A stretch of DNA of 64,000 bases from Gammaproteobacteria bacterium (GCA_963422205.2 CAXMWX010000011.1:1-64000), one strand, 5' to 3'; shown: positions 1 to 17,400, numbered from the stretch's first letter. Made by a program: numbers and translations. Notes: generated from the sequence alone by a model not told the origin.

Positions 1-13
1 CATTTATTCGTTA

Positions 14-81
14 TTAGTTTCTAAATATTTTTTTATAAGAGTAAATCTTAGTTACTAAAAAACGAAATATCAAGTAACTGA
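14..81. promoter_or_regulatory. Putative operator repeats of unit 1 (TTAGTTTCTAA 14-24, TTAGTTACTAA 48-58, CAAGTAACTGA 71-81)
   Basis: Three similar quasi-palindromic 11-mers in AT-rich DNA upstream of the 128-298 regulator. Confidence 0.4.
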
Positions 82-127
82 TGAAAAAACTGTAATATGC
101 AAATTAACTGAACAGTCGGTGACTGAT

Positions 128-298
128 ATGCCTACTAAACACATACCCGACACAACATGGCGAAAAGTCGAAAAAGAAGTAGTAAATGCGGTTATAGAAA
201 CAAAAGAAGCATTAAAACCTACAGAAGTACTTAACTACCTGATCTTAAAAGGAATTGAGAAAAGCAAAGAGGAGGGATACTCAGAAATGAAAAAATGA
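128..298 (+). CDS. Small ribbon-helix-helix-like regulator of filamentous-phage type (56 aa, MPTKHIPDTTWRKVEKEVVNAVIETK...), not in the ORF track
   Basis: Manual translation ATG128-TGA298. Stop overlaps the next start (ATGA). The MPTKHI-x-x-x-TWRKVE start resembles small inovirus repressors (recall, not searched). Confidence 0.65.
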   Translation: MPTKHIPDTTWRKVEKEVVNAVIETKEALKPTEVLNYLILKGIEKSKEEGYSEMKK

Positions 299-549
299 GC
301 GGCACCGCCCTGTACCGCGCCCTGGTTCATGCGGGTGCACCTGAGAATGAGGCGAAAGAAGCCAGTGACAGTATCGATCACACATTCACCGGCAAATTCA
401 ACACCATTGATGAACGCCTGAATAGATTGGAGATCACGGTCACTGAGTTGAAGGTCACAGTCGCTGAGTTAAGGGTGACCAACCGGCTAAATCTGGGCGT
501 CAGCCTGGTCATCCTGCTGTTCATTCTCAAATTGTCGTTCGCGCCCTGA
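295..549 (+). CDS. DUF1640/CCDC90-like membrane-anchored coiled-coil protein, paralog 1 (84 aa)
   Basis: Head LYRALVHAGAPENEAKEA, heptad stalk and C-terminal hydrophobic helix. Paralogs at 1727 and 3319. Confidence 0.75.
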   Translation: MSGTALYRALVHAGAPENEAKEASDSIDHTFTGKFNTIDERLNRLEITVTELKVTVAELRVTNRLNLGVSLVILLFILKLSFAP

Positions 550-589
550 CAGACAAAAAAACAGACAAAAAATAACCGGATCCGGTTAC

Positions 590-618
590 AAAGTGCGGGT
601 GTCATAGGGACCCGCACT
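590..618. other. Putative rolling-circle origin hairpin, copy 1 (AAAGTGCGGGT-GTCATAGGG-ACCCGCACT)
   Basis: 9-bp perfect stem, identical at 2209-2237 and degenerate at 3524-3552. Resembles inovirus plus-strand origin hairpins. Confidence 0.55.
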
Positions 619-748
619 GATTCTGCCCCCCATCCCCCCGTTCATTGAACGAGCGTTCAACAAAAAAACAGGCTGGCCAGGTCAGTTTTGCGGGGTAGTC
701 GGCATCCTGCCCCAGGTCACTCAAGCCCCTGTGACAGGCAAGCTGTCA

Positions 749-951
749 AGGACGCATAATGTGGCACTATGTTCAACAGGCGGTATGGGCTGCACGCTGT
801 CCCCCGTGGCGGCAGGATGATCAGCATAAGGATAGCCACGGGGGACAGCGTACAGGGATGGCCACCCCCGCCTGTCGGGCGGCTCGGCCTTCGGGCTTAT
901 CCATTATCCTGACGGCCTCGCCGTGAACATAATGCCCACATTATGCGTAAT
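749..951. mobile_element. CTX-type ssDNA attP: inverted pair of XerC/D dif-like sites
   Basis: Site A (+, 749-777) AGGACGCATAA-TGTGGCA-CTATGTTCAAC. Site B (-, 951-922) ATTACGCATAA-TGTGGGCA-TTATGTTCACG. Compare E. coli dif GGTGCGCATAA-TGTATA-TTATGTTAAAT. A perfect 17-bp inner stem lies at 794-810/835-851. Confidence 0.75.
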
Positions 952-1130
952 GACCAGCGGCAGGATGCCGGCCTTGCTAACAGACAAATCGACTTTTTTG
1001 GACAGCTGTCCAAATCGATTGGGGGGGGTAGTTAGCTGACGATCGGTGAATGGCCGGTGCTCAACATGCCTTGTCCGTGCGGGCTTTCAGCGATGAGCCA
1101 GCGATACCCATAATAGCCAAAACCCCCTGT

Positions 1131-1397
1131 TCAGCCGTCAATTAGCCACATCCGACCGCCGTATTTTCGATTCTGGGCGTTTTCCGATAGTTCCTCAAGT
1201 GGTTGCTCGGTGATGATGGCCAGGTGAGAGGCGACTATGAGATTGGGTAACAGACGGGCATCTATAGCGAAATGGCTGAAGATATCGCCATCGGCGTTCA
1301 TGATGCGAATATCTACGAAATCGGCCTCATGCTCGCTTTCCTGGACGATATAGCGGTTACCCTCAGTATCCCGGTAGCATGGCGTTTTCCACCCCAT
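1131..1397 (-). CDS. Hypothetical protein (88 aa), sole leftward gene of unit 2
   Basis: ATG with AGGGGG RBS. Divergent from the unit-2 regulator. Confidence 0.55.
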   Translation of the reverse strand: MGWKTPCYRDTEGNRYIVQESEHEADFVDIRIMNADGDIFSHFAIDARLLPNLIVASHLAIITEQPLEELSENAQNRKYGGRMWLIDG

Positions 1398-1437
1398 CGT
1401 GACCCCCTGTGGCCAGTGTTTGGGTGGTTTTGATAGA

Positions 1438-1500
1438 TATGTAACAAGTTACATAAATCAGAATAATCAACACATAACAAGTAACATTGCAACAGGTTAT
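1438..1500. promoter_or_regulatory. Putative operator repeats of unit 2 (TATGTAAC-AA-GTTACATA 1438-1455, ATAACAAGTAAC, GCAACAGGTTAT)
   Basis: Inverted repeat plus two related direct copies in a divergent intergenic region. Confidence 0.45.
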
Positions 1501-1534
1501 TTACAAGTCGGCAAACATAAACTAGAATGCAGGC

Positions 1535-1730
1535 CTGAAACTCAGGCAAAAACTCACAGAAACAGTCCGAATAAGGCATGACAGAGCAACAAAACTAAAA
1601 AAACAAATGCCTGGAAATAACAATAAAATCAGGGGTACAAATCCAAGAAAGTGACTTGGTCAACTTCCTGATTGACGAAGGACTAGAAAAAATAGCTATA
1701 AAAGACAACAATTTAGAGCTGAGACAATGA
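1535..1730 (+). pseudogene. Frameshifted RHH-like regulator of unit 2 (TVRIRHDRATKL / NKCLEITIKSGVQIQESDLVNFLIDEGLEKI)
   Basis: Removing one A from the A7 run at 1597-1603 joins the two frames. Stop overlaps the ATG at 1727, the same arrangement as in unit 1. Start uncertain. Confidence 0.5.
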
Positions 1731-1927
1731 GCGGCACCGCCCTGTACCGCGCCCTGGTTCATGCGGGTGCGCCTGAGAATGAAGCGAAAGAAGCCAGTGA
1801 TATTGTCGATGGAAAGTTCAATGACATTGACAGGCGTCTGACCCGACTGGAAGTCACCAGCCGGCTAAATCTGGGCGTCAGCCTGGTCATCCTGCTGTTT
1901 ATCCTCAAATTGTCATTTGCGCCCTAA
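1727..1927 (+). CDS. DUF1640/CCDC90-like membrane coiled-coil protein, paralog 2 (66 aa)
   Basis: Head and TM anchor identical to 295-549, with a shorter stalk. Confidence 0.75.
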   Translation: MSGTALYRALVHAGAPENEAKEASDIVDGKFNDIDRRLTRLEVTSRLNLGVSLVILLFILKLSFAP

Positions 1928-1956
1928 CAGACAAAAAATAACCCGATCCGGTTACA

Positions 1957-2184
1957 ATGACCATTGCCACCTTTGACACCCTGAAATTCGCCCAGCGCCT
2001 GGAACAGGCCGGACTGGAGCCAAAACAGGCCGCCGCCTTCGCCGAGGCGCAGAAAGAGGCATTGAGTGAGACCCTGGATGACCGAGTCGCAACCAAGGCC
2101 GATATCCAGCTATTACGATGGATGTCAGGCTTCAATCTGGCATTAAGCCTGGGAATATTATTCATTCTCTTGCAGGAAAAATGA
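1957..2184 (+). CDS. DUF1640 (CCDC90/MCUR1-like) protein (75 aa)
   Basis: Canonical FDTLKFAQRLEQAG head, ATKADI neck and C-terminal TM helix. Confidence 0.85.
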   Translation: MTIATFDTLKFAQRLEQAGLEPKQAAAFAEAQKEALSETLDDRVATKADIQLLRWMSGFNLALSLGILFILLQEK

Positions 2185-2208
2185 CAAAATACCGAACGAT
2201 CAAGCGGC

Positions 2209-2657
2209 AAAGTGCGGGTGTCATAGGGACCCGCACTAATTCTGCCCCCCATCCCCCCGTTCATTGAACGAGCGTTCAACAAAAAAACAGACCAGCCAAG
2301 TCAGTTCTGCGGGGTAGTCGGCATCCTGCCTTAGGTCACTAAGCCCCTGTGACAGGCAAGCTGTCAAGGGCACATAATGTGGCACTATGTTCAACGTGCG
2401 TAATGACCAGCGGCAGGATGCCGGCCTTGCTAACAGACAAATCGACTTTTTTGGACAGCTGTCCAAATCGATTGGGAGGGGTTAGCTGACGATCGGTGAA
2501 TGGCCGGTGCCGGTATCCCGCCGCAGCTGCCTGGTGCATTGCTCAAAATGCCTTGTCCGTGTGGGCTTTCAGCGATACCCATAATAGCCAAAACCCCCTA
2601 TTTCGCTGTCAAACCGCCGAAACCGACCGCCGCATTTTCGATTCTGGGCGTTTTCCG
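2209..2657. repeat. Non-coding block, copy 2: origin hairpin 2209-2237, single dif-like site 2367-2395, inner attP hairpin deleted
   Basis: Aligns to 590-1186 but lacks the equivalent of 778-942. Confidence 0.9.
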
Positions 2658-2716
2658 GGGGTGGGCAAGGGTCAGGGTATGGGGTAAATCCCGTAATTAT
2701 CAGCTAAGATGGCCGG

Positions 2717-3185
2717 ATGCGCCTCGCCATCCGCCCCCTGTCAGTCGTCTATCTGCCCGCCATCGCCGGCGCTCTGCAACCTACCCCCCTGCCAGCGAGC
2801 AGCCAGGTGCTGGTGTTTCAGTGTCAGCAGGCAAATGGGCACTGGCGGTTCTCTGATGCGCCGTGTGGGCGAGATGAGGTGGGCGGGCAGCATCTCATTG
2901 AGATGAACGATCCTCTGCCTTCTGCCCCGATGATGCACCAGTACCATGAGTTATTGGCCAGGGAGCAGGCACAGCGAAGCCGGGCCAGGCAACGGCAACA
3001 ACAACGTGAGCAGCGCCGATGGCAGGCGGGCCTGGCGGGCGCAGCATTGCCAGCGCACCAGAGACAGCTTGCAGCGCCACCGCAGTCTCATGGGCTTAGG
3101 TTACCGAGCGGCACAAAGTCAATCCCTGCACGATAGAGAGCGTGCCCTGGTCGAGCGGCGCAATGCGGCCTGCAACGCACGCTAA
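2717..3185 (+). pseudogene. DUF4124-like secreted protein, frameshifted near 3015
   Basis: N-terminal VFQCQQANGHWRFSDAPC motif in frame 2717. The expected C-terminus (C...GY...C) is in frame 2946-3185. Confidence 0.6.
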
Positions 3186-3318
3186 GGTGGCCACCAGATA
3201 AAAACGCAAGGCGAATAAAAGTAACCAACTCATAGCAAAAAGAGCAAATATTTAGAGAAAAACCGATAAAAACGAAGTAGCATAAACCCATGGTCATTGC
3301 CACAAGGAGTAAATATCC

Positions 3319-3492
3319 ATGAGCGGAACTGCTCTATACCGCGCCCTGGTACATGCGGGTGCGCCCGAGGATGAGGCTAAAGAGGCAGCGAGTGAAATCG
3401 ATGATATGAAAACTATTCTGGTTGAATTGCGTGTCACCAACCGAATATTGATTGTTCTGGTACTCACTTCGCTGATTAAGTCTTTCTTCTAA
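3319..3492 (+). CDS. DUF1640/CCDC90-like paralog 3 (57 aa, MSGTALYRALVHAGAPEDEAKEAASEIDDMKTILVELRVTNRILIVLVLTSLIKSFF), not in the ORF track
   Basis: AAGGAG RBS at 3304-3309. Same head as 295 and 1727. Confidence 0.75.
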   Translation: MSGTALYRALVHAGAPEDEAKEAASEIDDMKTILVELRVTNRILIVLVLTSLIKSFF

Positions 3493-3523
3493 TTCAGTAC
3501 AAAACGATGCTGGATCCTGCTGT

Positions 3524-3552
3524 AAAATACGGGCGTCACAAGCACCCGCACT
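3524..3552. repeat. Degenerate third copy of the origin-like hairpin (AAAATACGGGCGTCACAAGCACCCGCACT)
   Basis: 23/29 identical to 590-618 and in the same position just after a DUF1640-like gene. Confidence 0.65.
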
Positions 3553-3734
3553 GCTTCGGGCTACCAAGAACCATAACATCAATCATCGATAAAACACGAT
3601 GCTAAAAGAAGGCGATAGAAAAAAGCAACCTGCATGGCTGTCTAACCCACACTTGAATTTTGCTCAAAATGCGATGATAGTAGAGTCATGCGTAAACCGC
3701 CCTGCACTGCAACCAACCATGAGGTACGACTGCC

Positions 3735-4028
3735 ATGCTGAGAAACATACCTTTGAGTGTCATCTTATCTATGCTGCTATTGCCAGGTGCTGTATCGGCG
3801 GCGGAGAATTACCTCCCCAGCCTGATCACAGCAACGCCTTATGAGGGACGGCAACTGGCGATCAAGCTGGCGAGAAAATCCATCGGCGAAATGCAATCTG
3901 ATGCTGAGATCAAGAAAAAAGTACGGGCTGCCTATGCAGAGGATGGGGCTGTCCTGATCGAAGCGGCCGAGGTGATCGCTATCGAATTCAGCACGATTGC
4001 TGCGGCAAATAATTACTGGCGCAAATAA
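3735..4028 (+). CDS. Hexameric tyrosine-coordinated heme protein (HTHP) with N-terminal signal peptide
   Basis: LPSLITATPYEG...KLARK...VRAAYAED...FSTIAAANNYW matches the HTHP pattern. Confidence 0.85.
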   Translation: MLRNIPLSVILSMLLLPGAVSAAENYLPSLITATPYEGRQLAIKLARKSIGEMQSDAEIKKKVRAAYAEDGAVLIEAAEVIAIEFSTIAAANNYWRK

Positions 4029-4395
4029 ACCCGCACCTGCCCCTGTGCGGTGTGGCTCGTATCAGCGGCGGGTGAAAATCCTGATGGTCTGCTGGCACCA
4101 TGCCGACGCCCCGGCGGCACGTCCTAAGACACCCCCGCTTACAGCAGTGATGGTTGCTCGGCGCCCTGCTCGCTTGGCAGCGGTTGCAGCTTCAATACAC
4201 CGACACCCGGCAGGCGGACCGCCCTTTGTCCTGGCGAGCCACCCGGGCAATACCGGACTTGTCTATACGAAGCTGAGTAAGTGCCGTCCGCCCTGCTCCG
4301 CATCACCTGCTGAAAATCCACCTGTTTGACCCTGGAGTAATTATTCATTACAAGACTGGCCAGGAAGAAAGCACAAAGTCGGCAACAAAAAACCC

Positions 4396-4968
4396 ATGAC
4401 AGAAACCATCATCTATATGCTATTGGCATTGATCGCAGTGGTCATATCCAATCTAATATCAGCAAATTTAAGAAAAACACCGGGGGGAGAACAGCAAAAC
4501 TGGCTAAAGAAAAAACTGCTTACCGGCAACGAACTCAAATGTTTTCACGCAGTGAACCACTGTATAGATGCAGACCAAAACATCTCCTGCAAAGTCAGGC
4601 TGACTGATCTGATTGAGCCAGAGAAAAGACTGAAAAAATCGGAATGGCATAAGCAATTCAACAGAATAAAAAGCAAACATATCGACTTTGTCATCACCGA
4701 CAAAAACACAATGAACACGATCATCGCCATAGAACTGGACGATTCATCACACAGGAGAAATGGCAGAAGAGATAGAGACGATTTCATTAATGCCTGTCTT
4801 AAATCAGCCAACATCAGATTGCTGAGGCTGAACAGCTACAAAACATACATGCCTGAGCGGATAAAGCCCAAAATACTGGAAATAATTCAATATATACTGT
4901 CAGCCAAGGTCTGGAGTTTCATATCGCCAGATTACAAGCTTATGGATTTAATATTCTGTACATACTGA
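4396..4968 (+). CDS. DUF2726 domain protein with N-terminal TM helix
   Basis: LLTGNE, KVRLTDLI, KHIDFVI, IELDDSSH and RDDF motifs. Confidence 0.85.
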   Translation: MTETIIYMLLALIAVVISNLISANLRKTPGGEQQNWLKKKLLTGNELKCFHAVNHCIDADQNISCKVRLTDLIEPEKRLKKSEWHKQFNRIKSKHIDFVITDKNTMNTIIAIELDDSSHRRNGRRDRDDFINACLKSANIRLLRLNSYKTYMPERIKPKILEIIQYILSAKVWSFISPDYKLMDLIFCTY

Positions 4969-5739
4969 GTGGCGAAAGACCGAGTGAATATGGAAGTGCT
5001 CTGACAAAAGAACATTTGGCACAAGCCTTCCGTCTAACAGAGAAGCTTGGAAAAGATAAAAATAACAAACTAAGGAATTTAAAAGAACGGAAGCAATTTT
5101 TCCAAAATATTTATCATGAGTTATGGTTGAATGAAGGAGTATTAAACGAACAAATACTTCCCAGGCGGCGAAACCCACCCCGTTGTTATACAACGCTTCT
5201 TTCTTACCGTTAGCTCCGATCTAGAATCTGAATTACTATCTAAAACCCTATCACCCAGAGACTGGTTGTTAACTGGGCATTCACTAACCCCAGTGATAAT
5301 ATTAGCTCGTGAGATTTGATCCTAGCTATACTCAACTGTGATATTATCAATGTACTGCCTTACCTTTTCTTAAATAACCGATTCGCCAATGTGTAATCGT
5401 ACTATTTATCTAACCTATCTTCATAGGTATTAGAATATGGGCAATTATGATGGAATTGACAAACGCGACGGATTCAAAAACCAGTTTCTTCGGAAGTGGG
5501 GTTTTTAGTCAATACAAGGATATTGTGGTAGCTTTGCTAAAAGATTATATTCCTTTTTGACCAACCTCCACATTTAACTAGGCTAAGGTTTTGAGTCCAA
5601 TTAAATTTCAATAAAACCACCTTGGTACCGGGCTGTGTGATCTGTTTATGCTACCAAATTTGGCCCCTTATTCGAAATCCGACTCTGGCAACAGAGTAAA
5701 CGATTGAGTAAAAACTGACTAATGACGTAAAGAATAAAA

Positions 5740-7017
5740 TCATGGTTCAACTAAAATTAATGACAATGCCGGTACAAAGGTAATCACGAGCAAGGCCAAC
5801 AGCATAACCCCGATCCAGCTAATAACGGCGCGACTCAACTGCTCCAGGCTGACACCTCCCACTTGCGAAGCCATGAACAAATTAGCCCCTAATGGGGGTG
5901 TAATGAAACCTATCGCAAGATTCACCACAAGCATGATCCCAAAATGTATAGGACTCATCCCTAAGGCCGTCACTATCGGCAACAATATTGGCGTTAATAT
6001 GACAATGGCTGCTAAAGTTTCCATAAATGTCCCGACAAGCAACAGTAACAAGTTAATAGACAAAAATATCAACACAGCACTATTCGTTAATGACAGAATA
6101 TAGTCAGCGATCTCCATTGGGATCCGCTCCAACGTGAGTATACGACCAAATGCCACCGACGTACCGATAATCACCAACACTGCCCCAACTAATAAAGATG
6201 ATTCCAGTACGATCTCATACAGTTGTCGAAACGTGATTTCTTTGTAGATAAATAAACTAAAAATCAAACCATAAACCACCGCAACGGCTGCCGACTCTGT
6301 CGGAGTAAAAATACCGGTATAGATTCCACCTAATATAATAATCGGAATCAGCAAGGCCCAACTGGCTTGCTTAATTGCCTGCCATCGCTCACCCCAACTA
6401 TAATGCTTTTCAATACCACTAAACCCATTGCGATAACATTGAAAGATACAATAGATGATTAGCACTAAACCAATGAACACTCCCGGGAATATCCCGGCAA
6501 TGAACATATCCGTCACGGAAACCTCGGCTGTGACGGCATATACAATCATCACCACACTAGGTGGTATGATCACGCCGATTCCACCAGAGGTTGCTACCGT
6601 TGCTGCGGCAAAACTACGGTCATAACCCCGCTTGACCATGCTGGGAATCATGATTAAACCGATTGCAGCTACAGTTGCCGAGCCAGTGCCGGATATAGAG
6701 GCAAAGAAGATGCAGGAAACGATAGTCACCACACCCAAACCACCTGTTACACGTCCCAGAAAAACCTCAGTCAGGTGTAACAATCTTAGCGAGATCCCGC
6801 CCCGACTCATGAGATTTCCTGCCAGAGTGAACAGAACTACGGCCAGTAAGGGAAAGGAGTCTAAACCAGAGACCAAACCTTGAATAAAAAACTCCATGTT
6901 AATAAAAGGCAAGGCCACTATCGTCAGCATGCTGGCAACACCCAATGAGATCCCCACCGGTACACCCAATAAAAGTAAGATAATGAAACTTGAAAAGAGT
7001 ATGGTGGTTGCCATCAC
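5740..7017 (-). CDS. dctM: TRAP transporter large permease (DctM)
   Basis: Hydrophobic 425 aa with SGTGSATVAAIG, IIPPS, FTPTESAA and ITPPLG motifs. Confidence 0.95.
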   Translation of the reverse strand: MMATTILFSSFIILLLLGVPVGISLGVASMLTIVALPFINMEFFIQGLVSGLDSFPLLAVVLFTLAGNLMSRGGISLRLLHLTEVFLGRVTGGLGVVTIVSCIFFASISGTGSATVAAIGLIMIPSMVKRGYDRSFAAATVATSGGIGVIIPPSVVMIVYAVTAEVSVTDMFIAGIFPGVFIGLVLIIYCIFQCYRNGFSGIEKHYSWGERWQAIKQASWALLIPIIILGGIYTGIFTPTESAAVAVVYGLIFSLFIYKEITFRQLYEIVLESSLLVGAVLVIIGTSVAFGRILTLERIPMEIADYILSLTNSAVLIFLSINLLLLLVGTFMETLAAIVILTPILLPIVTALGMSPIHFGIMLVVNLAIGFITPPLGANLFMASQVGGVSLEQLSRAVISWIGVMLLALLVITFVPALSLILVEP

Positions 7018-7541
7018 CTTACTTCCATAAATATACTGTCAACCTCTATACCAATGGCCCTTTGATGCAGGCGCATTAGCAAATGAAGTACGTTGAATAA
7101 AGCACCTATGACTACTGAGCCATAGATAAAGGCAATAGGTACTTCAGTGGCTGGTGCTATCTGACCTAGCTCAAGACTACGTCTAATCACATCCCAACCA
7201 AATAACACCACGACCACAGAGTAAATGAGAAAGATCAAATCGCTAACGTTATATGCCAGCAATCTGAGATCGGATTGCAAATTGTCAATCACTACTCTAA
7301 TACGAATATGCCGATTCTCACGGATACCATAACTTATACTTAAATACATCGCCCAGACAAAAAGAAAACGGGCGATTTCTTCTGCCTCTGATAGGGACGC
7401 ATCAAATAGCCTCAATATAATTTGTATACATATAATGGACGTCATCAACAATATCAAAGTGACAATGCAAACCGGCTCAAAATAGCGGGCAAAAAGAAAA
7501 AATATTTTTTTCATTGGTGTTGTGACATTAATTGGTATCAA
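7014..7541 (-). CDS. dctQ: TRAP transporter small permease (DctQ)
   Basis: EEIARFLFVW and HIRI motifs, 4 TM helices. True start may be MKKIFF. Confidence 0.9.
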   Translation of the reverse strand: MIPINVTTPMKKIFFLFARYFEPVCIVTLILLMTSIICIQIILRLFDASLSEAEEIARFLFVWAMYLSISYGIRENRHIRIRVVIDNLQSDLRLLAYNVSDLIFLIYSVVVVLFGWDVIRRSLELGQIAPATEVPIAFIYGSVVIGALFNVLHLLMRLHQRAIGIEVDSIFMEVR

Positions 7542-8547
7542 TATTTAATATGATCGCATCGAATAATTCAGAACCAGTCTTATTGCGCAAACTATTGCTT
7601 ACGGCTTTGTTAAAACGGTTCTTGAGTTTCTTCCTGACTTCAATGTCAATAGTATTAATCTTAAGGCCTGCCTTTTCTAGTTCTATTATGATATCGCTAT
7701 TAAGTTTTCCCGCCAATAGACGTTGTTCCTTTACAGCCATTTTTGCTGCGCGATTAATGATGGACTGATTCTCCTTACTAAGTTGATCCCAAAATATCTT
7801 GTTAGCAAACCAGACATAGTTCGTATAAATATGTTCACTTAAAGATAAATACTTTTGGACTTCATAGAAGCGTTCAGCATAAACAGAGTACACAGCACTT
7901 TCCTGTGCATTAATCAGACCTTGTTGTAAGGAAGTGAATATCTCTCCCCACGACAACGGTATTGGCATGGTGCCAACCGATTTCCAGGCTTCTATCTGAT
8001 AAGGATTACTCGCCGCACGTATTTTTAATCCTTTGAGATCTTTAAAATGTACTATGGGTCGTTTGTTATTGGTAATATTTCTAAAACCCACCTCCATGAA
8101 ACCCAAGCCGTGAAAACCTTTGCTCTCCATTTTCCTTAAAAGAACTTCACCTATATCACTACTATCCAAAGCACGGTGGGCATGTGCAGCATCACGAAAC
8201 AGATAAAACATGTCAAGCACGTTGAACTCAGGTACGATGGAAGTAAGCAAGACTGAAGCGCCTACCGTCATTTGCAAGTTACCCTGACGGACCAACTCTG
8301 TGGTTTCACGTACTCCACCTAATTGGCGTGCTGGGTAAATCTCTACCCTGATTTTACCTTTAGAGTCCGTTTCCACCTGTTTCTTAAATAAAAGCATCCC
8401 CTGATGTAAAGGTGAGTTTTCTTTACTATCATGTCCAATGCGGATGATATTCGCTGAATAAGAGTAGGAAGAAAGTACATACCCGAGGAGCGTGCCCACG
8501 CATCCTACTAAAAAGATAGCTAATAGTAGGTTTTTAGGACGGCTCAT
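7528..8547 (-). CDS. dctP: TRAP substrate-binding protein (DctP)
   Basis: IYPARQLG, GFRNITNNKRPI, DLKGLKIR and EIFTSLQQG motifs. Confidence 0.95.
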   Translation of the reverse strand: MSRPKNLLLAIFLVGCVGTLLGYVLSSYSYSANIIRIGHDSKENSPLHQGMLLFKKQVETDSKGKIRVEIYPARQLGGVRETTELVRQGNLQMTVGASVLLTSIVPEFNVLDMFYLFRDAAHAHRALDSSDIGEVLLRKMESKGFHGLGFMEVGFRNITNNKRPIVHFKDLKGLKIRAASNPYQIEAWKSVGTMPIPLSWGEIFTSLQQGLINAQESAVYSVYAERFYEVQKYLSLSEHIYTNYVWFANKIFWDQLSKENQSIINRAAKMAVKEQRLLAGKLNSDIIIELEKAGLKINTIDIEVRKKLKNRFNKAVSNSLRNKTGSELFDAIILNIDTN

Positions 8548-8590
8548 TTCATTTATAGGCTTGGAGTAAAAATATTATCCAAAGAATCTC

Positions 8591-10873
8591 TTATACCTTT
8601 ACTTCCTTTTTTAAGTCTATCTCAACCTCGACACGGTTTATTTGCTGTGTAAATGGAAAGCTTCCTTTGTATTCACGGCTAATTGGAGAATGTGGATTTT
8701 CGCCACAGCGTAGTCCTGAATTCAATACATAGATTGGCCACATCTTTGGAAATTCTTTGGAGGCTATCGTTTCCCCATCAAGCGAAAAAGTGACTTTGGC
8801 AGAATGCTTACCAGTTTTATGGAACTCAAGCCCTAAAGCATGCTTTCCTTTCGGGATCCGTTTAGTTGACTTGATCTTGTATTTACGATTACGAATATAG
8901 ACATAAGTGCAAACCAAATAGCCATCTTGCATATACCACTCATAGCCCGCTGCACTATCTCCGACGGCAAAAATAACCCCCTCGGCTTTATTACTGGATA
9001 GTTCAACATCCGCACGAAAACGACTATCAACACTGTATATATCCGGAACGCTTAAACGATCCAATCGGGTTATCTTCGGGTAAAATACATAATGCGAGCG
9101 TCGTCGCGGCACCGAATTTTCATGTAATTTATGCCTGTCATCATCCATAGGCAAGACACCATAACGTCGTGCCTCACTGAACCAAAGAGCGATCAAGCTT
9201 TGCAAACGTTCTGGTTCTGCTTTTGCAAGGTTATTTAACTCCGCAAAATCTTTTGCTGCGTGGTATAGCTCCCATGTGTCTTCCTCAAAAGGCACACCAA
9301 ATTGATGACGAGTAACGGCCTTCCAACCCTTTTGCCAAATCGCCCTATCACCCATGGTTTCAAAATATTGGACTGTCTTCCGGGTCGTCGCTTTGGGTTT
9401 ATCAAAAGCGTAAGCAAAGCTGCTTCCCTGTATAGGCAATATTTTTTCTCCCTCTATTTCTTTCGGGAAAGGTTTATTGATCATGTCCATCAAGGTCGGT
9501 ACCAAATCGATGGCATGATGGTATTGTTCGGCAATGTGTCCTTCGGGTAGTTTGCCATTTGGCCAACTCATAATCAGCGGCGTACGAATACCGCCTTCAT
9601 AGGTATCGGCCTTATACCATTTCAATGGTGTATTACTGACCTGTGCCCAGCCACGGGAATAGCCCATGAATGATTGATCTGTTCCCTGTAAATCAAGACT
9701 CTCAATAAGTTCTTTAATCGATTCTTTTTCTTTCTGATAGGCAACTCGCCGTACATCAAAACGCCCTTCAATCGGACCGCCAAAAGATGCACCATTATCG
9801 GAGAGTACAACGAATATTGTATCATTGTATTGTTCTTCCGCTTTAAGGAAATCAACCAAGCGTTGTATTTGTGCATCGGTATGCTCCAGAAAAGCGGCAT
9901 ATACCTCCTGTTGTCGTGCAACGATGCGTTGTTGGTCTCCGGATAACTCTTCCCAAGGAGGCACATCAGCATTGCGTGGTGCCATCCGGGACCCTTTCGG
10001 TACTAATCCCATCTTTAATTGTTTTTCAAAACGTTCCTGTCTAATTGCATCCCAACCGCGCTGATACTTCCCGAGATAACGTTCGATATAGTCAACTGGA
10101 GCATGTAAAGGAAAATGACAGGCGCCAAACGCGAGATGCAGAAAAAAAGGATTGTCCGGGTTGGCTGCAATATGGTCCCTGACATAAGCAATGGAACGAT
10201 CAGACAGGTCGGCACTCAAGTGATAGTCATCTGTCTTTTCAGGGTAAGCCGCAGAGGTATTCTCGAACATTTCCGGATGCCAATGATCAGCGGCCGAACT
10301 ATGAAAACCATACCAGCGATCAAACCCACGTTGTACCGGCCAGTGGTCAAAAGGCCCCGTACCATTCTGGTCACCAAGAGGCGTTAAATGCCATTTACCA
10401 GTCGCCAGAGTGGAATAACCTTCAGGACGAAGTATTTCAGCAAGTGTCGCTGCATCTTCGCGGATCCAACCCTTGTAGCTAGGGTGATCACGTCCCCATT
10501 CAGCGATATTCCCTACCCCCACAGCATGTGCATTGCGACCTGTTAGTAGACAAGCACGAGTAGGCGCACACAAAGCAGTCACATGAAAATTATTAAAGCG
10601 AGTACCGTCTGCTGCGATTTGATCCATACAGGGAGTTTTATGCTCAGCACCGTAACAACCCAGATCGCCAAACCCGACATCATCCAAAATCACCATGACA
10701 ATATTCGGCTTGCGTTTGAGTTCTCTCGGGGACCAACCGCCTGCACCGATCGAGCTTCGACCTTCAGCTTCTGTAGTTTCTGTGGCTACTGCAGATGTAT
10801 GATTCGGACCTAAAGCCACTACGGTCGAAGCAAGCGCGGTTGTCTGAATAAACTTACGTCTGCTAAATTTCAT
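8591..10873 (-). CDS. Tat-exported arylsulfatase (Cys-type, FGly-dependent) with C-terminal beta domain
   Basis: SRRKFI Tat motif, PNIVMVILDDVGFGD, CAPTRACLLTGR and GKWHL. Confidence 0.95.
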   Translation of the reverse strand: MKFSRRKFIQTTALASTVVALGPNHTSAVATETTEAEGRSSIGAGGWSPRELKRKPNIVMVILDDVGFGDLGCYGAEHKTPCMDQIAADGTRFNNFHVTALCAPTRACLLTGRNAHAVGVGNIAEWGRDHPSYKGWIREDAATLAEILRPEGYSTLATGKWHLTPLGDQNGTGPFDHWPVQRGFDRWYGFHSSAADHWHPEMFENTSAAYPEKTDDYHLSADLSDRSIAYVRDHIAANPDNPFFLHLAFGACHFPLHAPVDYIERYLGKYQRGWDAIRQERFEKQLKMGLVPKGSRMAPRNADVPPWEELSGDQQRIVARQQEVYAAFLEHTDAQIQRLVDFLKAEEQYNDTIFVVLSDNGASFGGPIEGRFDVRRVAYQKEKESIKELIESLDLQGTDQSFMGYSRGWAQVSNTPLKWYKADTYEGGIRTPLIMSWPNGKLPEGHIAEQYHHAIDLVPTLMDMINKPFPKEIEGEKILPIQGSSFAYAFDKPKATTRKTVQYFETMGDRAIWQKGWKAVTRHQFGVPFEEDTWELYHAAKDFAELNNLAKAEPERLQSLIALWFSEARRYGVLPMDDDRHKLHENSVPRRRSHYVFYPKITRLDRLSVPDIYSVDSRFRADVELSSNKAEGVIFAVGDSAAGYEWYMQDGYLVCTYVYIRNRKYKIKSTKRIPKGKHALGLEFHKTGKHSAKVTFSLDGETIASKEFPKMWPIYVLNSGLRCGENPHSPISREYKGSFPFTQQINRVEVEIDLKKEVKV

Positions 10874-11180
10874 ATGTTCTCCTTATTGTTATATTCAACA
10901 TAGATAGTATTACTCATAAGAGAATAGGAAATGCTTAGACAATCCGGCTAGCCTTAATAATAGCCATTCATTGTTGATTCGTCATAAACATAAAAAACGC
11001 CACTTTGATTTTAAGGGTTTTGTATGCATGCTAATTAGAGCTGGTTCCCTCACATATTATTAATCATCAGGTAAATAATGCTTGAATAAGGGATCCAACA
11101 GACGAGAGATATAGTTACCCCCAAAACCTGGAAACATCGCAATGTGGATGTCTCCAGGAAAGGAGGCGAGGGATACGCTT

Positions 11181-13580
11181 TTAGAAGTTATAACCAACTC
11201 GGAAACCATACATCCTGGGTTTACCCCAGGATACCTGAATGATATCGCTACCACCCACGATAGTATGTTGGAGAACCGCTATATTGCTTACATTTTCCAC
11301 ATAAGCTTGTGCATTCCAATGTCCATCATGAGACTCCCAATATAGTCGCATATCTAATTTTGCATAGGCATCCTGTTTAGCCAAATCAAACTGTTGCAGT
11401 CCCGTCGTAAAATGACTACCGGAATAAGCAAGCTGCATATGTGGGGTGAAGACCCCCATTGCTGTAGACAGACTATAGGAAAGACCTACATTACCAGAGG
11501 CCGTTGGCGCCCACGGCGTATCCCGACCATCAAGGGAAATATTTCCATTCGCATCCAACGGGAGTGTACCTGCCGATTGAAAGCGATTGGAGGCACCAAA
11601 GGTATCATAGCTTGAGTCCATGTAGGCCATATTGGCAACCATTGTAAAGTTGTCGGTCACCAAAGCTTTCAGATCAACTTCAATGCCCATTGCAGTCAAT
11701 GAACCACCATTCGTTTTTACCGTGAGAGATTGGGCATCGAGTATACCGGCCAACATATCGTCAAATTCATTTCGGTAAGCGGCAATATTTAACTCCAGAC
11801 GGTCATTAAGCAGACGGTTTTTCAAACCAATCTCGTAGGCGATTACTTTCTGTGGATCATATGTCGTACCATTATTGTTGTAACTCCCTGCTAGAAAACC
11901 CGTAGATACGCTTGCATAAAGCAGGCTATCTTCGAAAACATCAAGTTCTCCGCCAACTTCCCAGGTAACTTTACTCCAAGACTCATTGCTACTAGCAGAC
12001 GGAGCACCTATAGTTGTTTGACCTAGCACACCTGTGCTACGCATTATTCTTTGACCGAAATAATCCATTTTATTCCTGCTATATCGAACACCAGCACTCA
12101 CACGTGCGCTATCTGTCACTCGATAAATACCGTGAGCGAATACTCCGAAGGTCTCATTCTCCAACTCACTCGGATTACCTGCAAACTGATTAGGACATAC
12201 TGCATTCGGGTTAGTTGGATCAGCGACTGCGGCAGTCGCAATACTACCAAATGCGTTACCACAGTTGGCCAAAGCAGCTATTGGCGTGTTTGCTGCAACT
12301 TCTGCAGCAGTGGCTGCAAAACCAAGCCAGGTCCTTAGAAAAGCATGCGTCATGTCTTCTTGGGAATAATACAGTCCCGTTACCCAGTCCAATTTTTCTG
12401 TTTCACCAGATATTTGTAATTCAGTACTCCAATATTCGGTATCATCAAGACGGCTTTCTTCCAATAATCTCCCCTCGCTGTAGTCACCATCCACTTGAGC
12501 CAGGTTGAAGTAATCGGTATAGGCGCTCAATGATTTAATTGAAATATCGCCGACATACCAATTTATCTCCAGTGCTGTGGTATCTTCCTGAACATCGCGA
12601 ATAAAATCACTGTCACGATAGATTTCCCAAGGTCCTCGATCTCCGCGCGTACCTAATGAACCACCACGAGAGTTGACTGGATCATGAATACCATTTGCAA
12701 CGGTCTGGCGTTGGGTTATAGGTATTACGGATGTTGGATCGGGGTCACGTAGTGTTCCGCGTGATTGATAACCATAAGCACCAAGAGCACTACCACCAGA
12801 GTCGTAATGGAAATGTGAAACTAAAATACTTAAATTCTCACTAGGTTCCCACAGGGCAGAACCACGTATAGCTACATCATCAACTTCACCTAAATCATTA
12901 CTGGCCCCCAGGTTTTTAATCCAACCATCGGCATCATTCCAGGAGCCGGCAAGACGGACAGCAAAATTATCTTTTATTGCGGCGTTTACAAAACCTTGAG
13001 CTTTTCTCTTTTCAAAGTTACCAACTGTAAAATTGATGGCACCTGCAATGGGGGCTTCTGTATCCGGCTTATTGGTTTTAACCAGTATGGCACCACCTAG
13101 GGTATTGCGCCCAAACAGGGTACCCTGGGGACCTTTTAATACTTCAACCGACGCCACATCAAGAAACGCATTACCGCCCTGAGCAGCGCGAAGTCGATAA
13201 AGTCCATCAACAAATACACCATTCGGTACCGGTTCCGCACGATCTGTGTTTTCAGCGTCGGCACCTCGTATAGATATTTTGTAATCGTTGCCACGCTGAG
13301 CAAACGCCAGTCCGGGAGTAATCAACTCCAAACGTGAAACATCTTCAATACCCGCTTTATCCAGTGCTTGGCTATCAAACGCATTGACTGATTTACCAAC
13401 ATCCTGAGCGTTTTGTGTACGTTTAGTCGCGGTAATAACCACTTCTTCAAGAATAATTTTTGCCTGAACTTGTGCCGTGACTGCCAAGCCAAACCCAAAA
13501 ATGAGTGAACTAAGTGACGCAGATAATAAATTGTTAATCCTTAAGTGTTCCCATATGGATTGAGATCTTATCTGGATCAT
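11181..13580 (-). CDS. TonB-dependent outer-membrane receptor
   Basis: EEVVITATKR TonB box, VEVLKGPQGTLFGRNT plug motif and C-terminal GYNF. Confidence 0.95.
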   Translation of the reverse strand: MIQIRSQSIWEHLRINNLLSASLSSLIFGFGLAVTAQVQAKIILEEVVITATKRTQNAQDVGKSVNAFDSQALDKAGIEDVSRLELITPGLAFAQRGNDYKISIRGADAENTDRAEPVPNGVFVDGLYRLRAAQGGNAFLDVASVEVLKGPQGTLFGRNTLGGAILVKTNKPDTEAPIAGAINFTVGNFEKRKAQGFVNAAIKDNFAVRLAGSWNDADGWIKNLGASNDLGEVDDVAIRGSALWEPSENLSILVSHFHYDSGGSALGAYGYQSRGTLRDPDPTSVIPITQRQTVANGIHDPVNSRGGSLGTRGDRGPWEIYRDSDFIRDVQEDTTALEINWYVGDISIKSLSAYTDYFNLAQVDGDYSEGRLLEESRLDDTEYWSTELQISGETEKLDWVTGLYYSQEDMTHAFLRTWLGFAATAAEVAANTPIAALANCGNAFGSIATAAVADPTNPNAVCPNQFAGNPSELENETFGVFAHGIYRVTDSARVSAGVRYSRNKMDYFGQRIMRSTGVLGQTTIGAPSASSNESWSKVTWEVGGELDVFEDSLLYASVSTGFLAGSYNNNGTTYDPQKVIAYEIGLKNRLLNDRLELNIAAYRNEFDDMLAGILDAQSLTVKTNGGSLTAMGIEVDLKALVTDNFTMVANMAYMDSSYDTFGASNRFQSAGTLPLDANGNISLDGRDTPWAPTASGNVGLSYSLSTAMGVFTPHMQLAYSGSHFTTGLQQFDLAKQDAYAKLDMRLYWESHDGHWNAQAYVENVSNIAVLQHTIVGGSDIIQVSWGKPRMYGFRVGYNF

Positions 13581-13831
13581 AACAATACCCCCTTAATGAT
13601 TGATAACAGTAATTCAAGGATTAATTTCGTGAGAGTGTTATTCAGATGTCACACCTTTACCCCCTCATCTCATCAAGTTATTCGATAGATCATGTTTATA
13701 CAAAATGTATTTCCAATGCAAGTTTTTTAATTTTAAATTCATGATTTTATTATTTATTATGTATTAAATTTCAATTTAATCAATTATTTAAAGATTTTCT
13801 TATTAACGCATTCAAAGTGATAAATATATTA

Positions 13832-14290
13832 GGGACTGTACCAGATAACTATCCCATATGACGTTTAACCCATTGATTCAATTGCTTTAATTGGATATTT
13901 GGGTCACTGTTGTTACATCGCCACTCACATTCCTTCAAAAATAGACCAAAATGCTCCCTCGGAACACCATTGAATTTCCGCAAATGTCGCTTGGCCTGAT
14001 TCCAGAAGTTCTCGATCCCATTGATGGGGTGATACCGGTCTGCAAACCGCTTTGAATGATTAATGCGATAGTGCTCGAACTCACTGACATCGGGCACGTT
14101 ATCGCCTCGCCAGCCATCACTGTAGACCATGCTGTCAGGAATCACCTTACGTTCAATGATCGGGTATAAAGTCCGACTGCTGGCATCAGAATGATCTTGG
14201 TGTCGACCTTGCCTCCGTGCTTCAACAGACCGAATACCGGCACCGTGCCAGCGCACCGCCGACAATGACCGCCCTGCCCCTTGCCCCAAG
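13832..14290 (-). mobile_element. IS1595-family (IS1016-like) remnant: truncated, frameshifted transposase plus one terminal IR
   Basis: INGIENFWNQAKRHLRKFNG...FLKECEWR. VPVFGLLK is in another frame upstream. IR-like GGGACTGTACCAGATAACTA at 13832-13851. Confidence 0.85.
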
Positions 14291-14493
14291 TCGCTCCCGC
14301 TGCTTAACCGAGGCATAAAAAGCATCCATATCTATATGAATGATCGTGCGATTTTGCACGATAGCCAGTGTTTTTTACAGACAAATTCTACTACAATTTG
14401 CACATTCAAAACCTGCCCATGCAAGCAAACATGCTAACACAAGCAGTCCATGTCATATTTTCATACATACCAGCTCAGTCTGACGAGGCACCT

Positions 14494-17400
14494 ATGGCAA
14501 AACTCATTCGTGTAGTTACTTTTCTCATCCCCCTGCTGACAAGCCACATCGCCCACGCTGATCTGGCTGCGGCCAACCAGTCCTTGCGAGCGGGTGATTT
14601 TACCGCCGCCGCGAACGAGTTTCAGCGCCTGGCCGAAGCGGGCGATGCCAGCGCCCAGGCACAGTTGGGTTATCTGTATTATACCGGCGAGGGCGTGCCG
14701 CAAAGCTATACCGAGGCGGTCAGGTGGTACCGCAAGGCGGCAGTGCAGGGCGATGCCGATGCCCAGTATAACCTGGCGGTTGCCTATGCCTTTGCCGAGG
14801 GCGTGCCGCAGGACTACGCCGAGGCCGCTTCGTGGTACCGCCGTGCAGCCGAACAGCAACATGCCATCGCACAATACAGCCTGGGTATTTCCTATGCGTA
14901 TGGCGAGGGCGTTGAACAAAATGCGGCCGAGGCGGTCAGGTGGTTTCAGCGCGCTGCCGAGCATGGCTATGTCCGCGCACAAGTCCTGGTCGGCAGCCGA
15001 TACCATACCGGCGATGGCGTTGAACAGAGCTTTGCAGAGGCGGCAAAATGGTATCGAAAAGCCGCCGACCGGGGCAACGCCGCCGCGCAGTACAACCTGG
15101 GCTCGCTGTATCGCTCCGGCAACGGCGTAGCACAGGATTACAACCAGGCCATGCGCTGGTACCGAATGGCCGCCGATCAGGGGTATGCTGCCGCACAGAA
15201 TGAGTTGAATAGCCTGGAACGTACCCTGACCGGCATAGCCCGAAAGAAATCCACCCCCCAGAACGCCACCTCCCGGAGCGGGCCGGTGACACCGCCGCCC
15301 ACGGCCAGCAGCCCACCTGCCGACACGACGACCAAGCCGCTATTAAGCGTTGAGACAGACACTCTGTTGGAGTTACCCGTTGCCTCTTCCGCTGCCCAAA
15401 CAGCTGTCCAGGCCGCCCCGCTTCCTCTGACAGCAGAACAAGACACCCCGGCCACACCGGCAGGACAACCTGCTGATGAGCAAACCGGCACCGCAGCCGA
15501 TACCAGTGCAGATAGTGGAACAGCGCAACGAAAGCGGCGCGGTTTTTTTGCCCGTTTGTTTGGCAAATCCCCCGGGCCAGATGCCGATGAACCGGATGCA
15601 GAAAATGCCGCTGCTTCTCAAGACGAGGCGGCTGACGCCGCCCCTGCCCTGACCGATAGGGGTGCCGATGCCACTGCAGCAGATGAGGCCAGTGCTGAAC
15701 AGGTGGTTGAGGTATTGACACCGCCCGAAACGAATTTAGACGAAGCCCCGGCAAATGAGACCTTGGCAAATGCGTTCCTGGATAGCGGCGATGACCTGCC
15801 GCCCGTTGCTGCCGCCGATGATGATGCAGATAGCATGGAAACCACGGCCATGACAGATGATGAGATGGCCAGCCGACCCAGACGCATGGGTTTCTTCTCC
15901 AGGCTGTTCGGCCGAGGGAAAGCACAAGCAGCGGAGGAGACTGTGGCCGATACACCCCTCATGGCAACAGAGGAACACGCCTTGTCAGCCGCCCCGGATG
16001 CCCCCGACCAGCCAGAGACACAGACCGCCCTGACCCACGGCATTGCTCTGACAGATGAACGTGAGGATGATGTCCTTCTTGCCCGGGCCGAGGCCCTGGA
16101 TGAACCCGCCGGGATGACCGAAGCACCGCCTGCCGCCATGTCTGAAGAGGCGATGCTGGCAGATGCCACGGCAACCGATACTGTGGGCGATGATGCCGGG
16201 GACGATTCTGAAATCACCGCCGAACAGTCAACCAGGAAAGCCGGGGTTTTCGCCCGTCTGTTTGGCCGTGGAAAACAGCCGGTCCCGGCCGAGGATGCTG
16301 AAACTGCGCCGACCGAGGTACCCGGAGAAGAACAGGTGCTGTCAGCCATCTCAGATGAATCAGGCCAGTTTGAAACACAGAAAGAGCAGATGCTGTTAGC
16401 CGCCTCGGATGCGCCCGGTCAGCCTGACACCGAGAGCGCCGCCGCCGGTGAATCCGCATCGAAGGCCGTACCATCAGCCGCAGTCACCCCGGCAGAACAA
16501 ACAGATACAGCGACAGAAACAGTGCAGAGAAAAGGTTTTTTCTCGCGTTTATTTGGCAAAAAAGTTGATACCGATGCGGCGACAGATAACCCGCCCGAAG
16601 ATGAGGCGATGGCAAAGGATACAACGACCAACGGTGCCACCATCGATGAATCCCTGCTGCAAGAAGAAGCGGCTGAACAGGAAAAAGAGAAAGCCGGTTT
16701 TTTTGGCCGATTATTCAGCCGGGAGCAATCTGTCGGTGCCGACCCGGGCCTGGCCGGGAATGATGCAGACAGCAAAACGGCGCAAGAACAACCGGCCGTT
16801 GAATCAATATCCGCCGATGCGGATGTCATGCAGGCCGCACAGGCCGCATTAAAAGACAGAAATTACGATGAGGCATTTCGTGCCTTTCGCTCTATGGCAG
16901 GCCAGGGGGATGCCGTTGCCATGTACTGGGTCGGCTCTTTGTATCATCAGGGGCTGGGCACGGTGCAGGATCATGGTGAGGCGGCGCGCTGGTATACCCG
17001 TGCAGCAGAGCGCGGCAATGCTGATGCCCAGTATAGCCTTGGCAGCATGTTCCTGATGGGGGAAGGCATGACACCGGATGATGAGCAGGCACAATACTGG
17101 TATGCAAAAGCGGCCGAACAGGGACACAATACCGCCCGGCATAACCTGAACAGCCTGGAGAAAGTCGCCCGTGAAAAACGTATCCCGGAAGAAGAAAGTG
17201 ATGATGCAGAGTTACTGACAGGCAGCGGCATCGGGGGTGAGACCATCATCAACGAAGCCGCCGAGACACAGGCGGCAACCACCGATGCGACCCCCAGTCC
17301 AACCCCTGAGAAAAAAGGCTTTCTCTCCCGCCTGTTCGGTGGCAAAGATAAAGAGGATGCTGAAGTCACACCGCCAGACGAACCTGCTGATCAAACGCCA

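Follow-up and report, generated by a model that had tools for sequence, protein, structure and literature searches.

The window analysed here, a stretch of 64,000 nt from a Gammaproteobacteria bacterium (GCA_963422205.2 CAXMWX010000011.1:1-64000), corresponds to G000:C13:1-64000 in the genome assembly G000, and its position 1 is the end of contig C13. Its first ~3,560 nt hold three tandem units of inovirus origin, which we read, at a probability of about 0.78, as the dif-distal and oldest end of a CTX-type array of integrative mobile elements exploiting Xer recombination (IMEX) at the chromosomal dif site. One 96-nt stretch, in which a small gene begins, is present three times (283-378, 1715-1810 and 3307-3402; 100, 91 and 69% identity), and a noncoding block at 558-1186 is repeated at 2177-2657 in several pieces that are 78-99% identical. 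The three small open reading frames (ORFs) themselves, at 295-549, 1727-1927 and 3319-3492 (84, 66 and 57 aa), share the N-terminus MSGTALYRALVHAGAPE, after which come a coiled coil that varies in length and, at the C-terminus, a hydrophobic helix. A first-pass annotation of this DNA had described a module recurring across three units, and the repeated 96-nt stretch and small ORFs bear this out. We set the unit boundaries at the XerC-arm half of the B-type attachment sites described below.

Unit 1 (to 940) consists, from left to right, of operators, a regulator, small gene 1, a double hairpin and a complete phage attachment site (attP). The divergent promoter/operator region of this prophage copy (1-118) contains repeats at 14-25 and 48-59, an inverted repeat at 50-56/73-79 and, on the minus strand, a promoter-like site at 73-45; as in all our promoter and terminator scans, the number of such sites was not above that in shuffled sequence. 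It is followed by an intact regulator of 56 aa (128-298, plus strand) that matches phrog_5219 (E 4e-19), a family of no assigned function that is matched by 5 of 5 homologues. This was the regulators' sole match, with none to Pfam or to a PDB profile at E<=10. Lying in the position of rstR, the regulator is a candidate immunity repressor. Small gene 1 (295-549, plus strand) encodes a conserved N-terminal segment of 24 aa, a coiled coil and a C-terminal membrane helix. The double hairpin (573-618) is made up of a GATC-centred palindrome at 573-588 and a hairpin with a 9-bp stem at 592-618. The attP (700-970, minus strand) comprises two dif-like sites, site A at 750-777 (+) and site B at 923-951 (-), on either side of an inner hairpin at 790-855.

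Unit 1 has a close counterpart elsewhere in the assembly. BLAST of positions 1-3600 against the genome aligned window 1-1060 with the reverse complement of 3135-2092 on contig C2 (L001; 16,842 bp) at 97.3% identity. The rep gene of C2 lies at 3133-4266, and bases 1-3 of the window are the complement of its ATG. C2 carries a prophage arranged head to tail, with 1-2838 being 100% identical to 7625-10462 and 3132-9204 being 99.85% identical to 10771-16842, giving a repeat unit of ~7.6 kb. It encodes a gene II-type Rep (PF05155 5e-21, PF05144 2e-5, phrog_702 9e-85), a Zot/pI protein (PF05707 5e-24, phrog_1675 2e-46), a major coat protein whose match is weak (E 0.004) and a pIII-like ORF of 488 aa; no integrase family was found among the 10 C2 ORFs scanned, all of at least 80 aa. 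A pattern scan of genome_contigs and viral_contigs found no relatives of this Rep, and its best deposited matches are less than 48% identical. Rep, coat and Zot are thus present on C2, and none of these genes lies within window 1-3560. Because the window opens on the start of rep and matches C2 at 97%, unit 1 is very probably the regulator, cargo, origin and attP end of a full-length prophage rather than a miniature element. The first-pass annotation, which had all three units as miniaturised and lacking rep and capsid genes, fits units 2 and 3 in their lack of rep and virion genes, and very probably does not fit unit 1. Assembled (Logan) contigs from two public runs (X1, X2), which we aligned against the window, reach 25-26 nt past its left end and break off there, as contigs would where a repeat begins or ends.

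The two phage copies on C2 differ only over ~300 bp between rep and the small gene (2838-3132 and 10462-10771), where each has a different small regulator; these otherwise identical copies thus diverge exactly at the regulator, or immunity, region. Two regulators in otherwise identical copies are the pattern of heteroimmune CTX variants. The order seen here is also that of CTXphi: att, origin hairpins, antisense regulator, divergent promoter and rep. Separately, the regulator of copy A on C2 shows two frameshifts that are absent from the indels of the aligned Logan contigs and may be assembly errors.

Unit 2 (941-2396) is a rep-less derivative of 1.46 kb that runs from the XerC-arm half of site B to a further dif-like site, A2. 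It begins with a hybrid form of a repeat that we call X (1021-1186), in which a DUF4124-like gene and an iteron-like region have been deleted between two X copies. Instead of rep...zot there is an orphan gene, ORF88 (1131-1397, minus strand), which found only itself among 5.8e9 clusters. A match among 1.84e9 representatives, to a 5388-aa repeat protein, covered residues 3-31 only at 29-36% identity in every repeat and was set aside as an artefact. Operator-like repeats follow at 1438-1487, with TAACAAGT(T/A)ACAT occurring twice, 33 nt apart (1442-1454/1475-1487), and a palindrome at 1438-1455, so that units 1 and 2 each have operator repeats of their own, as had been claimed; a promoter-like site lies at 1500-1528. 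Regulator 2 (1536-1730, plus strand) is a pseudogene when compared with its intact 66-aa homologue in a relative (L051:10941-11141, genome G043). Its ATG has become CTG and an A-run has gained one base, and the Logan contigs have the same sequence. The first-pass annotation had given units 1 and 2 each a ribbon-helix-helix-like gene; the unit 1 regulator is indeed intact, its unit 2 counterpart is not, and this fold is shown for neither. Small gene 2 (1727-1927, plus strand; 66 aa) is intact. Inserted exactly between a palindrome (1939-1954) and the unit 2 hairpin (2211-2237) is a short DUF1640/CCDC90-like gene of 75 aa (1957-2184, plus strand), which reaches 24.1 bits against PF07798 (E 3.8e-5; cut-off 33.5) and is 59-66% identical to paralogs, one of which scores above the cut-off at 34.6 bits. 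At site A2 (2369-2396, plus strand) the attP loop and most of site B are missing, a deletion of 161 nt relative to unit 1, leaving unit 2 with one dif-like site rather than two.

Unit 3 (2397 to ~3560) is further reduced, with a long X, a DUF4124-like gene, an AT-rich remnant, small gene 3 and a decayed hairpin in that order. Its start (2397-3192, plus strand) is 85% identical to C2 2210-1463 and holds a XerC-arm remnant, the long X (2474-2700) and the DUF4124-like gene (2717-3136), for which the PF13511 match is weak (E 0.093, and 0.0068 for the C2 copy). After a deletion, an AT-rich remnant (3193-3318) contains no repeats, and its last ~20 nt resemble the end of the copy-B regulator region of C2. 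Small gene 3 (3319-3492, plus strand; 57 aa) is intact and has a KSFF-type C-terminus, and the hairpin homologue at 3524-3552 is 76% identical to the C2 hairpin region and does not fold. Units 2 and 3 are rep-less deletion derivatives of older copies; neither has a Rep, unlike an RS1-type satellite, which lacks virion genes but keeps rstR, rstA and rstB and thereby a Rep of its own. As for X, it is a repeat of ~170-230 nt, present on either side of the DUF4124-like gene in the phage and at the beginning of both relic units, with copies at window 1021-1186 and 2474-2700, at ~867-1062 and ~1997-2210 of each unit of L001, and at G000:C8:58949-59045. We considered X as an ori(-) or packaging signal and rejected this, since its single-stranded fold is worse than that of shuffled sequence (z +1.9 and +2.0).

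The repeats could instead be a product of assembly, as the region lies at a contig end beside a collapsed or tandem repeat. The units, however, are 69-94% identical rather than identical, and each holds unique sequence (ORF88, regulator 2 and the DUF1640-like gene among them). Logan contigs of the two runs match window 1-323, 1074-1755, 1870-2268, 2488-2671 and 3163-4000 with 0 differences, covering the unit-specific junctions of the array and bridging 1074-1755 and 1870-2268 of unit 2. We therefore regard an assembly duplication as scarcely credible. In run X2 the depth of the Logan contigs was ~2000-7600 for phage-shared parts, 776 for a unit-2-specific contig and 484 for the chromosomal flank; in X1 these values were 20-44, 4.7 and 6.9. 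Such depths are not copy numbers, and no inference was drawn from them.

We next consider the attachment sites. The three dif-like sites of the array lie at 750-777 (+), 923-951 (-) and 2369-2396 (+), and the phage (+) strand, which is the rep-sense strand, is the minus strand of the window. When 690-980 was folded as single-stranded DNA, site B paired with site A in a forked hairpin of -96.9 kcal/mol, compared with -53.5+-4.2 kcal/mol for shuffled sequence (z -10.4; 0 of 200 shuffles as good). The host encodes both recombinases, XerD (TIGR02225, 388 bits) and XerC (TIGR02224, 367 bits), above their curated cut-offs. One contig in each run is identical to the window from 938 on and continues leftward into ~255 nt of a different sequence. 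On the opposite strand, the end of that sequence completes the XerC arm of site B with a central region of 6 nt and a canonical XerD arm; in comparison with the dif sites of two relatives, G043 and G007, the XerD arm matches and differences are confined to the central region. This junction is the dif that a CTX-type array should re-create on its zot side, as passages of PMC4439123 describe for CTXphi, in which dif is re-created on one side of the insertion and so allows tandem insertion. Because the run contigs show the regenerated dif at the left end of the array, dif lies to the left of the window and the rightmost units are the oldest, so that decay grows to the right. Decay rising with distance from dif is a prediction of the integration model, and it agrees with the rightward decay noted in the first-pass annotation. 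That annotation had also pointed leftward for rep, zot and dif: the rep start codon stands at the very edge of the window, C2 supplies rep, coat and Zot, and the run contigs supply the regenerated dif. Its view of this DNA as CTX-like inovirus material that integrates through Xer is upheld by the gene content of C2, the forked attP and the re-created dif.

These observations suggest the following course of events. The phage, of ~7.6 kb, has rep-ssb-coat-pIII-pVI-Zot on one strand. The other strand carries a small regulator and a small tail-anchored membrane protein, and beyond these lie the double hairpin and the attP with its two inverted dif-like sites. Its packaged (+) strand would fold the attP into the forked hairpin, with which host XerC would exchange one pair of strands at dif, replication then completing the insertion. 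A working dif would be re-created on the zot side, so that new copies would enter on the left and older copies would shift to the right. Unit 1 (1-940) would then be the end of a full copy whose rep-zot genes lie beyond the contig end, while in unit 2 (941-2396) and unit 3 (2397 to ~3560) internal deletion would have removed rep and all virion genes and the small membrane-protein genes would have been kept.

In this scheme the double hairpin would be where replication starts. Its second half has a stem of 9-12 bp and a loop like GTCATAGG (592-618). Three origin hairpins had been proposed for the array. Those at 592-618 (z -5.25) and 2211-2237 (z -4.30) fold better than any of 200 shuffles, whereas the homologue at 3524-3552 fails to fold (minimum free energy -3.3, z +1.2, with 184 of 200 shuffles folding equally well). 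In all, the double hairpin was better than shuffled sequence in 11 of 12 copies folded (z -2.7 to -7.3), the exception being that of unit 3. It occurs seven times in the G043 array and once each in G007 and G086, in the latter 40 nt from the start of rep, as well as in the deposited inovirus genomes OP433453.1 and OR621025.1, for a total of five host or phage lineages. The stems show paired changes (AGTGCGGGT/ACCCGCACT here, AGTACGGGT/ACCCGTACT in G086 and TAGTCGGGTG/CACCCGACTA in G043), and all 5 of the 5 pairs of the first palindrome have compensatory changes (MAFFT/RNAalifold). RNAalifold called only this palindrome, as a 1-nt register shift hid the second stem, which was judged from single folds. 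Given where it lies, how it is conserved and covaries, and that rep-less units retain it, we take the double hairpin to be, most likely, the recognition and nicking site of Rep, i.e., a predicted ori(+). The ori(+) of CTXphi likewise contains several inverted repeats, with the RstA nick falling in one hairpin's apical loop, according to passages of PMC4439123. In the passages searched of the paper on Alteromonas phage phiAFP1 (PMC9769780), a double hairpin, an origin hairpin and dif go unmentioned. We dropped a reading of the hairpin as an integron attC, since the same double hairpin is found in complete inovirus genomes.

Homologous prophages are rare among relatives, with Rep present in 4 of 126 family genomes (G000 among them). 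G043, a complete chromosome of a metagenome-assembled genome (MAG; OZ000552.1) from a genus other than that of G000, has three reps within 18 kb, oriented as in the window array, with a canonical dif at the left edge and phage A-type sites at five junctions. The flanks of its dif map to the interior of G000 contigs C7 and C13. In G007 a single prophage, arranged att - rep...zot - dif, precedes a duplicated phage fragment of 389 bp. All three reps of G043 (G043:C1:1421725-1439853; L043, L045-L049) are interrupted at aa ~94-108, with one TGA inside each, which could reflect a programmed shift, readthrough or a shared inactivation. A second duplicated hairpin block of G043 lies at L051 807-1290.

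The end of the G043 array bears on how unit 2 should be understood, as it consists of a homologous rep-less unit with an intact regulator 2, a small gene, hairpins and a site A. This module is 83% identical in nucleotide sequence between G000 and G043, compared with 68-77% for chromosomal alignments and 69-72% for rep. Unit 2 may thus be a rep-less satellite, a mini-IMEX, in which the Rep of a helper phage nicks hairpin 2 and terminates at hairpin 1, the resulting circle is packaged by the helper and, once in a new cell, inserted at dif through Xer. The circle would be a (+) strand of 1,619 nt that combines the complete attP from the junction of units 1 and 2 with X, ORF88, small gene 2 and the DUF1640-like gene. 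Both hairpin 1 and hairpin 2 are intact; the distance from one to the other is 1619 nt, with the complete attP between them, and passages of PMC4439123 describe CTXphi genomes as arising by rolling-circle replication between tandem copies, from ori to ori across neighbouring elements. At G043:C1 ~1421264-1421590 (L050 11264-11590) there is, in addition, a unit of ~320 bp with only the double hairpin and a complete A-loop-B attP; it adjoins dif, where the newest insertions lie. Several observations speak against a satellite. Regulator 2 is a pseudogene in the window, no packaging signal was identified, and the left parts of the two modules differ, with ORF88 and X here and 140 nt in G043. Among 125 other family genomes the search found a single one with the module, aside from a 31-nt match in G127, and no back-joint between the hairpins appears among the joints of the Logan contigs, which drop rare forms. 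We consider such a satellite possible but unlikely. Somewhat more doubtful still is the wider proposal that unit 2 and its G043 counterpart belong to a lineage of minimal rep-less satellite IMEXs of ~1-1.6 kb, each with a regulator, a tail-anchored small protein and the double-hairpin origin, which would be copied from ori to ori by a helper Rep, borrow a neighbour's attP and spread between genera, with the ~320-bp G043 unit as an extreme form.

The small genes that survive in all three units raised a different possibility, put forward in the first-pass annotation, namely that three miniaturised satellites accumulated at dif and that their membrane coiled-coil genes were selected as cassettes, for example for superinfection exclusion. 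In its favour, each of the small genes has stayed intact beside parts that are decaying, and the ratios of nonsynonymous to synonymous substitution (dN/dS) suggested in that annotation are low, at 0.115 for genes 1 and 2, 0.22 for genes 1 and 3 and 0.32 for genes 2 and 3 (50-66 codons; the synonymous sites of gene 3 are near saturation). Passages of PMC12715192 report degraded CTX-I relics in Vibrio that keep their cargo. Yet unit 1 abuts rep, a low dN/dS can date from time spent inside active phages, and chance survival is likely for genes as short as these (57-84 codons). The distribution of the family also argues against this proposal. Of 31 candidates from 5.8e9 clusters, 25 belong to the family at E<=0.01, and it has no Pfam domain. 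It occurs in 28 of 121 host-family genomes with up to 16 matches per genome, often in tandem runs such as five genes within 1.2 kb in G114. Rep lay near the small genes at 1 of 27 loci checked, that of the G043 array, with many of these loci spanning only 1.5 kb on each side, and among 45 small-gene loci (265 kb) hairpin or dif-like patterns were found only in the two dif arrays. In relatives the family is thus mostly chromosomal and away from phages, making accumulation through phage integration a minor route at most, and we hold selection as phage-borne cassettes to be improbable. The description of the small genes as DUF1640-like has also to be abandoned: 0 of 26 members match PF07798 at E<=1, and hhalign gives a probability of 2.6% against a DUF1640 trio, leaving 1957-2184 as the sole ORF of that type in the array.

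In related phages, the slot from regulator to hairpins is taken up by different small coiled-coil membrane proteins. G007 has one of 54 aa there, G043 has one of 90 aa with an N-terminal anchor as well as a DUF1640 gene, and in phiAFP1 the slot is empty. Since the slot holds varied proteins and the family is host-wide, the small genes can be viewed as cargo drawn from a host-wide pool. They are probably co-transcribed with the regulator in lysogens, and might, at a guess, exclude related phages. Small gene 1 has a 21-nt insertion (window 432-452; one heptad, ITVTELK) relative to the C2 copies, and lengths across the family vary by heptad-sized indels. A solitary 62-aa paralog lies at G000:C10:32283-32471 (L003 2283-2471, minus strand), with neither hairpin nor dif-like site, near an IS1595-like transposase and a DNA methyltransferase. 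The region G000:C8:56000-63000 (L002) contains two DUF1640 genes, a 78-aa N-terminally anchored coiled-coil gene resembling the cargo of one G043 phage, an X-like fragment, an ORF resembling phosphoadenosine phosphosulfate (PAPS) reductase and two ORFs for RHS-type C-terminal toxins, with small ORFs downstream of them. This cluster may represent a pool of cargo genes or a further relic.

Our preferred reading, that the window starts with the old end of a CTX-type array at dif, has several points to answer. A canonical XerD arm or dif was found nowhere in the G000 assembly, and the chromosomal flank of the run contigs is also absent from it. Both public runs come from one study and may be the assembly's own data, and the link between C2 and the window, together with the number and order of full copies, rests on the logic of contig ends, with no sequence spanning them. 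The spacers of the dif-like sites are 7-8 nt rather than 6, the att of unit 2 is a plain deletion rather than an Xer product, and nicking of the hairpin by Rep is predicted only from position and conservation. The 83% identity of the unit 2 module between two genera fits mobility better than inert decay. Finally, no Xer-type junction was found at the right border (3553-3735). A stretch at 3686-3697 (minus strand), 134 nt after hairpin 3, matches the XerC-arm half of site B at 9 of 10 bases in the expected orientation and is a possible, though uncertain, remnant of the original XerC arm; the rough chance of such a match is ~0.01 for the stretch, which was chosen post hoc.

To the right of the array, the first chromosomal gene (3735-4028) encodes a secreted hexameric tyrosine-coordinated heme protein (PF11534, 1.8e-31), and a DUF2726 protein follows at 4396-4968 (PF10881, 3.1e-31). 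A stretch of ~50 nt at window 5452-5504 is 83-87% identical in five genomes of other genera and on G000:C12, and has a terminator-like stem with a T-run at its end and no tRNA or Rfam match. Scans found no tRNA in 1-10000 and no Rfam element in 1-8000, and there was no usable synteny with relatives around the right flank. The GC skew of C13 is negative throughout, which is compatible with a start at the terminus and is no proof of it.

Much of this organisation is already described for Vibrio. Passages of PMC4246890 and PMC4439123 report, for the CTXphi/RS1 arrays at dif1 of Vibrio cholerae, the lack of an integrase, two inverted dif-like sites that pair in the (+) single-stranded DNA, dif re-created on the zot side, heteroimmune tandem copies and defective or satellite units beside full copies; CTX, VGJ and TLC types are tabulated in PMC4246890. 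The array differs from these in its gene II/G2P-type Rep (PF05144/PF05155), in the absence of rstB, rstC and ctxAB, in its 7-8-nt att spacers, in rep-less units without Rep where RS1 keeps rstA, and in its host, an uncultured gammaproteobacterium. In the TLCphi satellite, a small IMEX similarly lies beside CTX-type prophages at dif. TLCphi, however, has its own Cri replication protein and XafT and integrates as double-stranded DNA via XerD (passages of PMC4246890 and PMC6744903), and the units here encode neither protein. IMEX arrays are common, being found in 12.6% of the Vibrio genomes studied according to a passage of PMC12715192, which also describes array relics, the degraded CTX-I elements, that lose phage functions and keep accessory genes, as seen here. 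In those relics the cargo, on average 1.9 kb of defence or virulence genes, is located between zot and xafT, whereas the slot here is between regulator and origin and holds membrane coiled-coil proteins of 57-90 aa. The closest deposited Reps, at 46-48% identity, are those of phiAFP1 (OP433453.1) and Pseudomonas phage 17897 (OR621025.1), both of which have a divergent small regulator followed by the same double hairpin. phiAFP1 also shares the two inverted dif-like sites, and differs in having no small membrane gene between regulator and hairpin.

Tandem IMEX arrays, a re-created dif, heteroimmune copies and relics that keep cargo are therefore known from the parts of the Vibrio literature cited above, and what is new here is the host family and the gene II-type Rep. 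For this organism, our findings show that the dif region is missing from the assembly and that the start of C13 very probably belongs with C2. More broadly, they add an uncultured gammaproteobacterial family, the relatives in which bear MAG labels, to the hosts of CTX-type Xer-dependent phage integration with its relics and heteroimmune tandem prophages at dif. They also bring to light a protein family without a name (MSGTALYRALVHAGAPE...) that is widespread in the host family. For this clade of Rep, they provide a conserved double hairpin as candidate ori(+) and a cargo slot that repeatedly holds small membrane coiled-coil proteins. The double hairpin, the cargo slot and the possible lineage of rep-less satellites are worth following.

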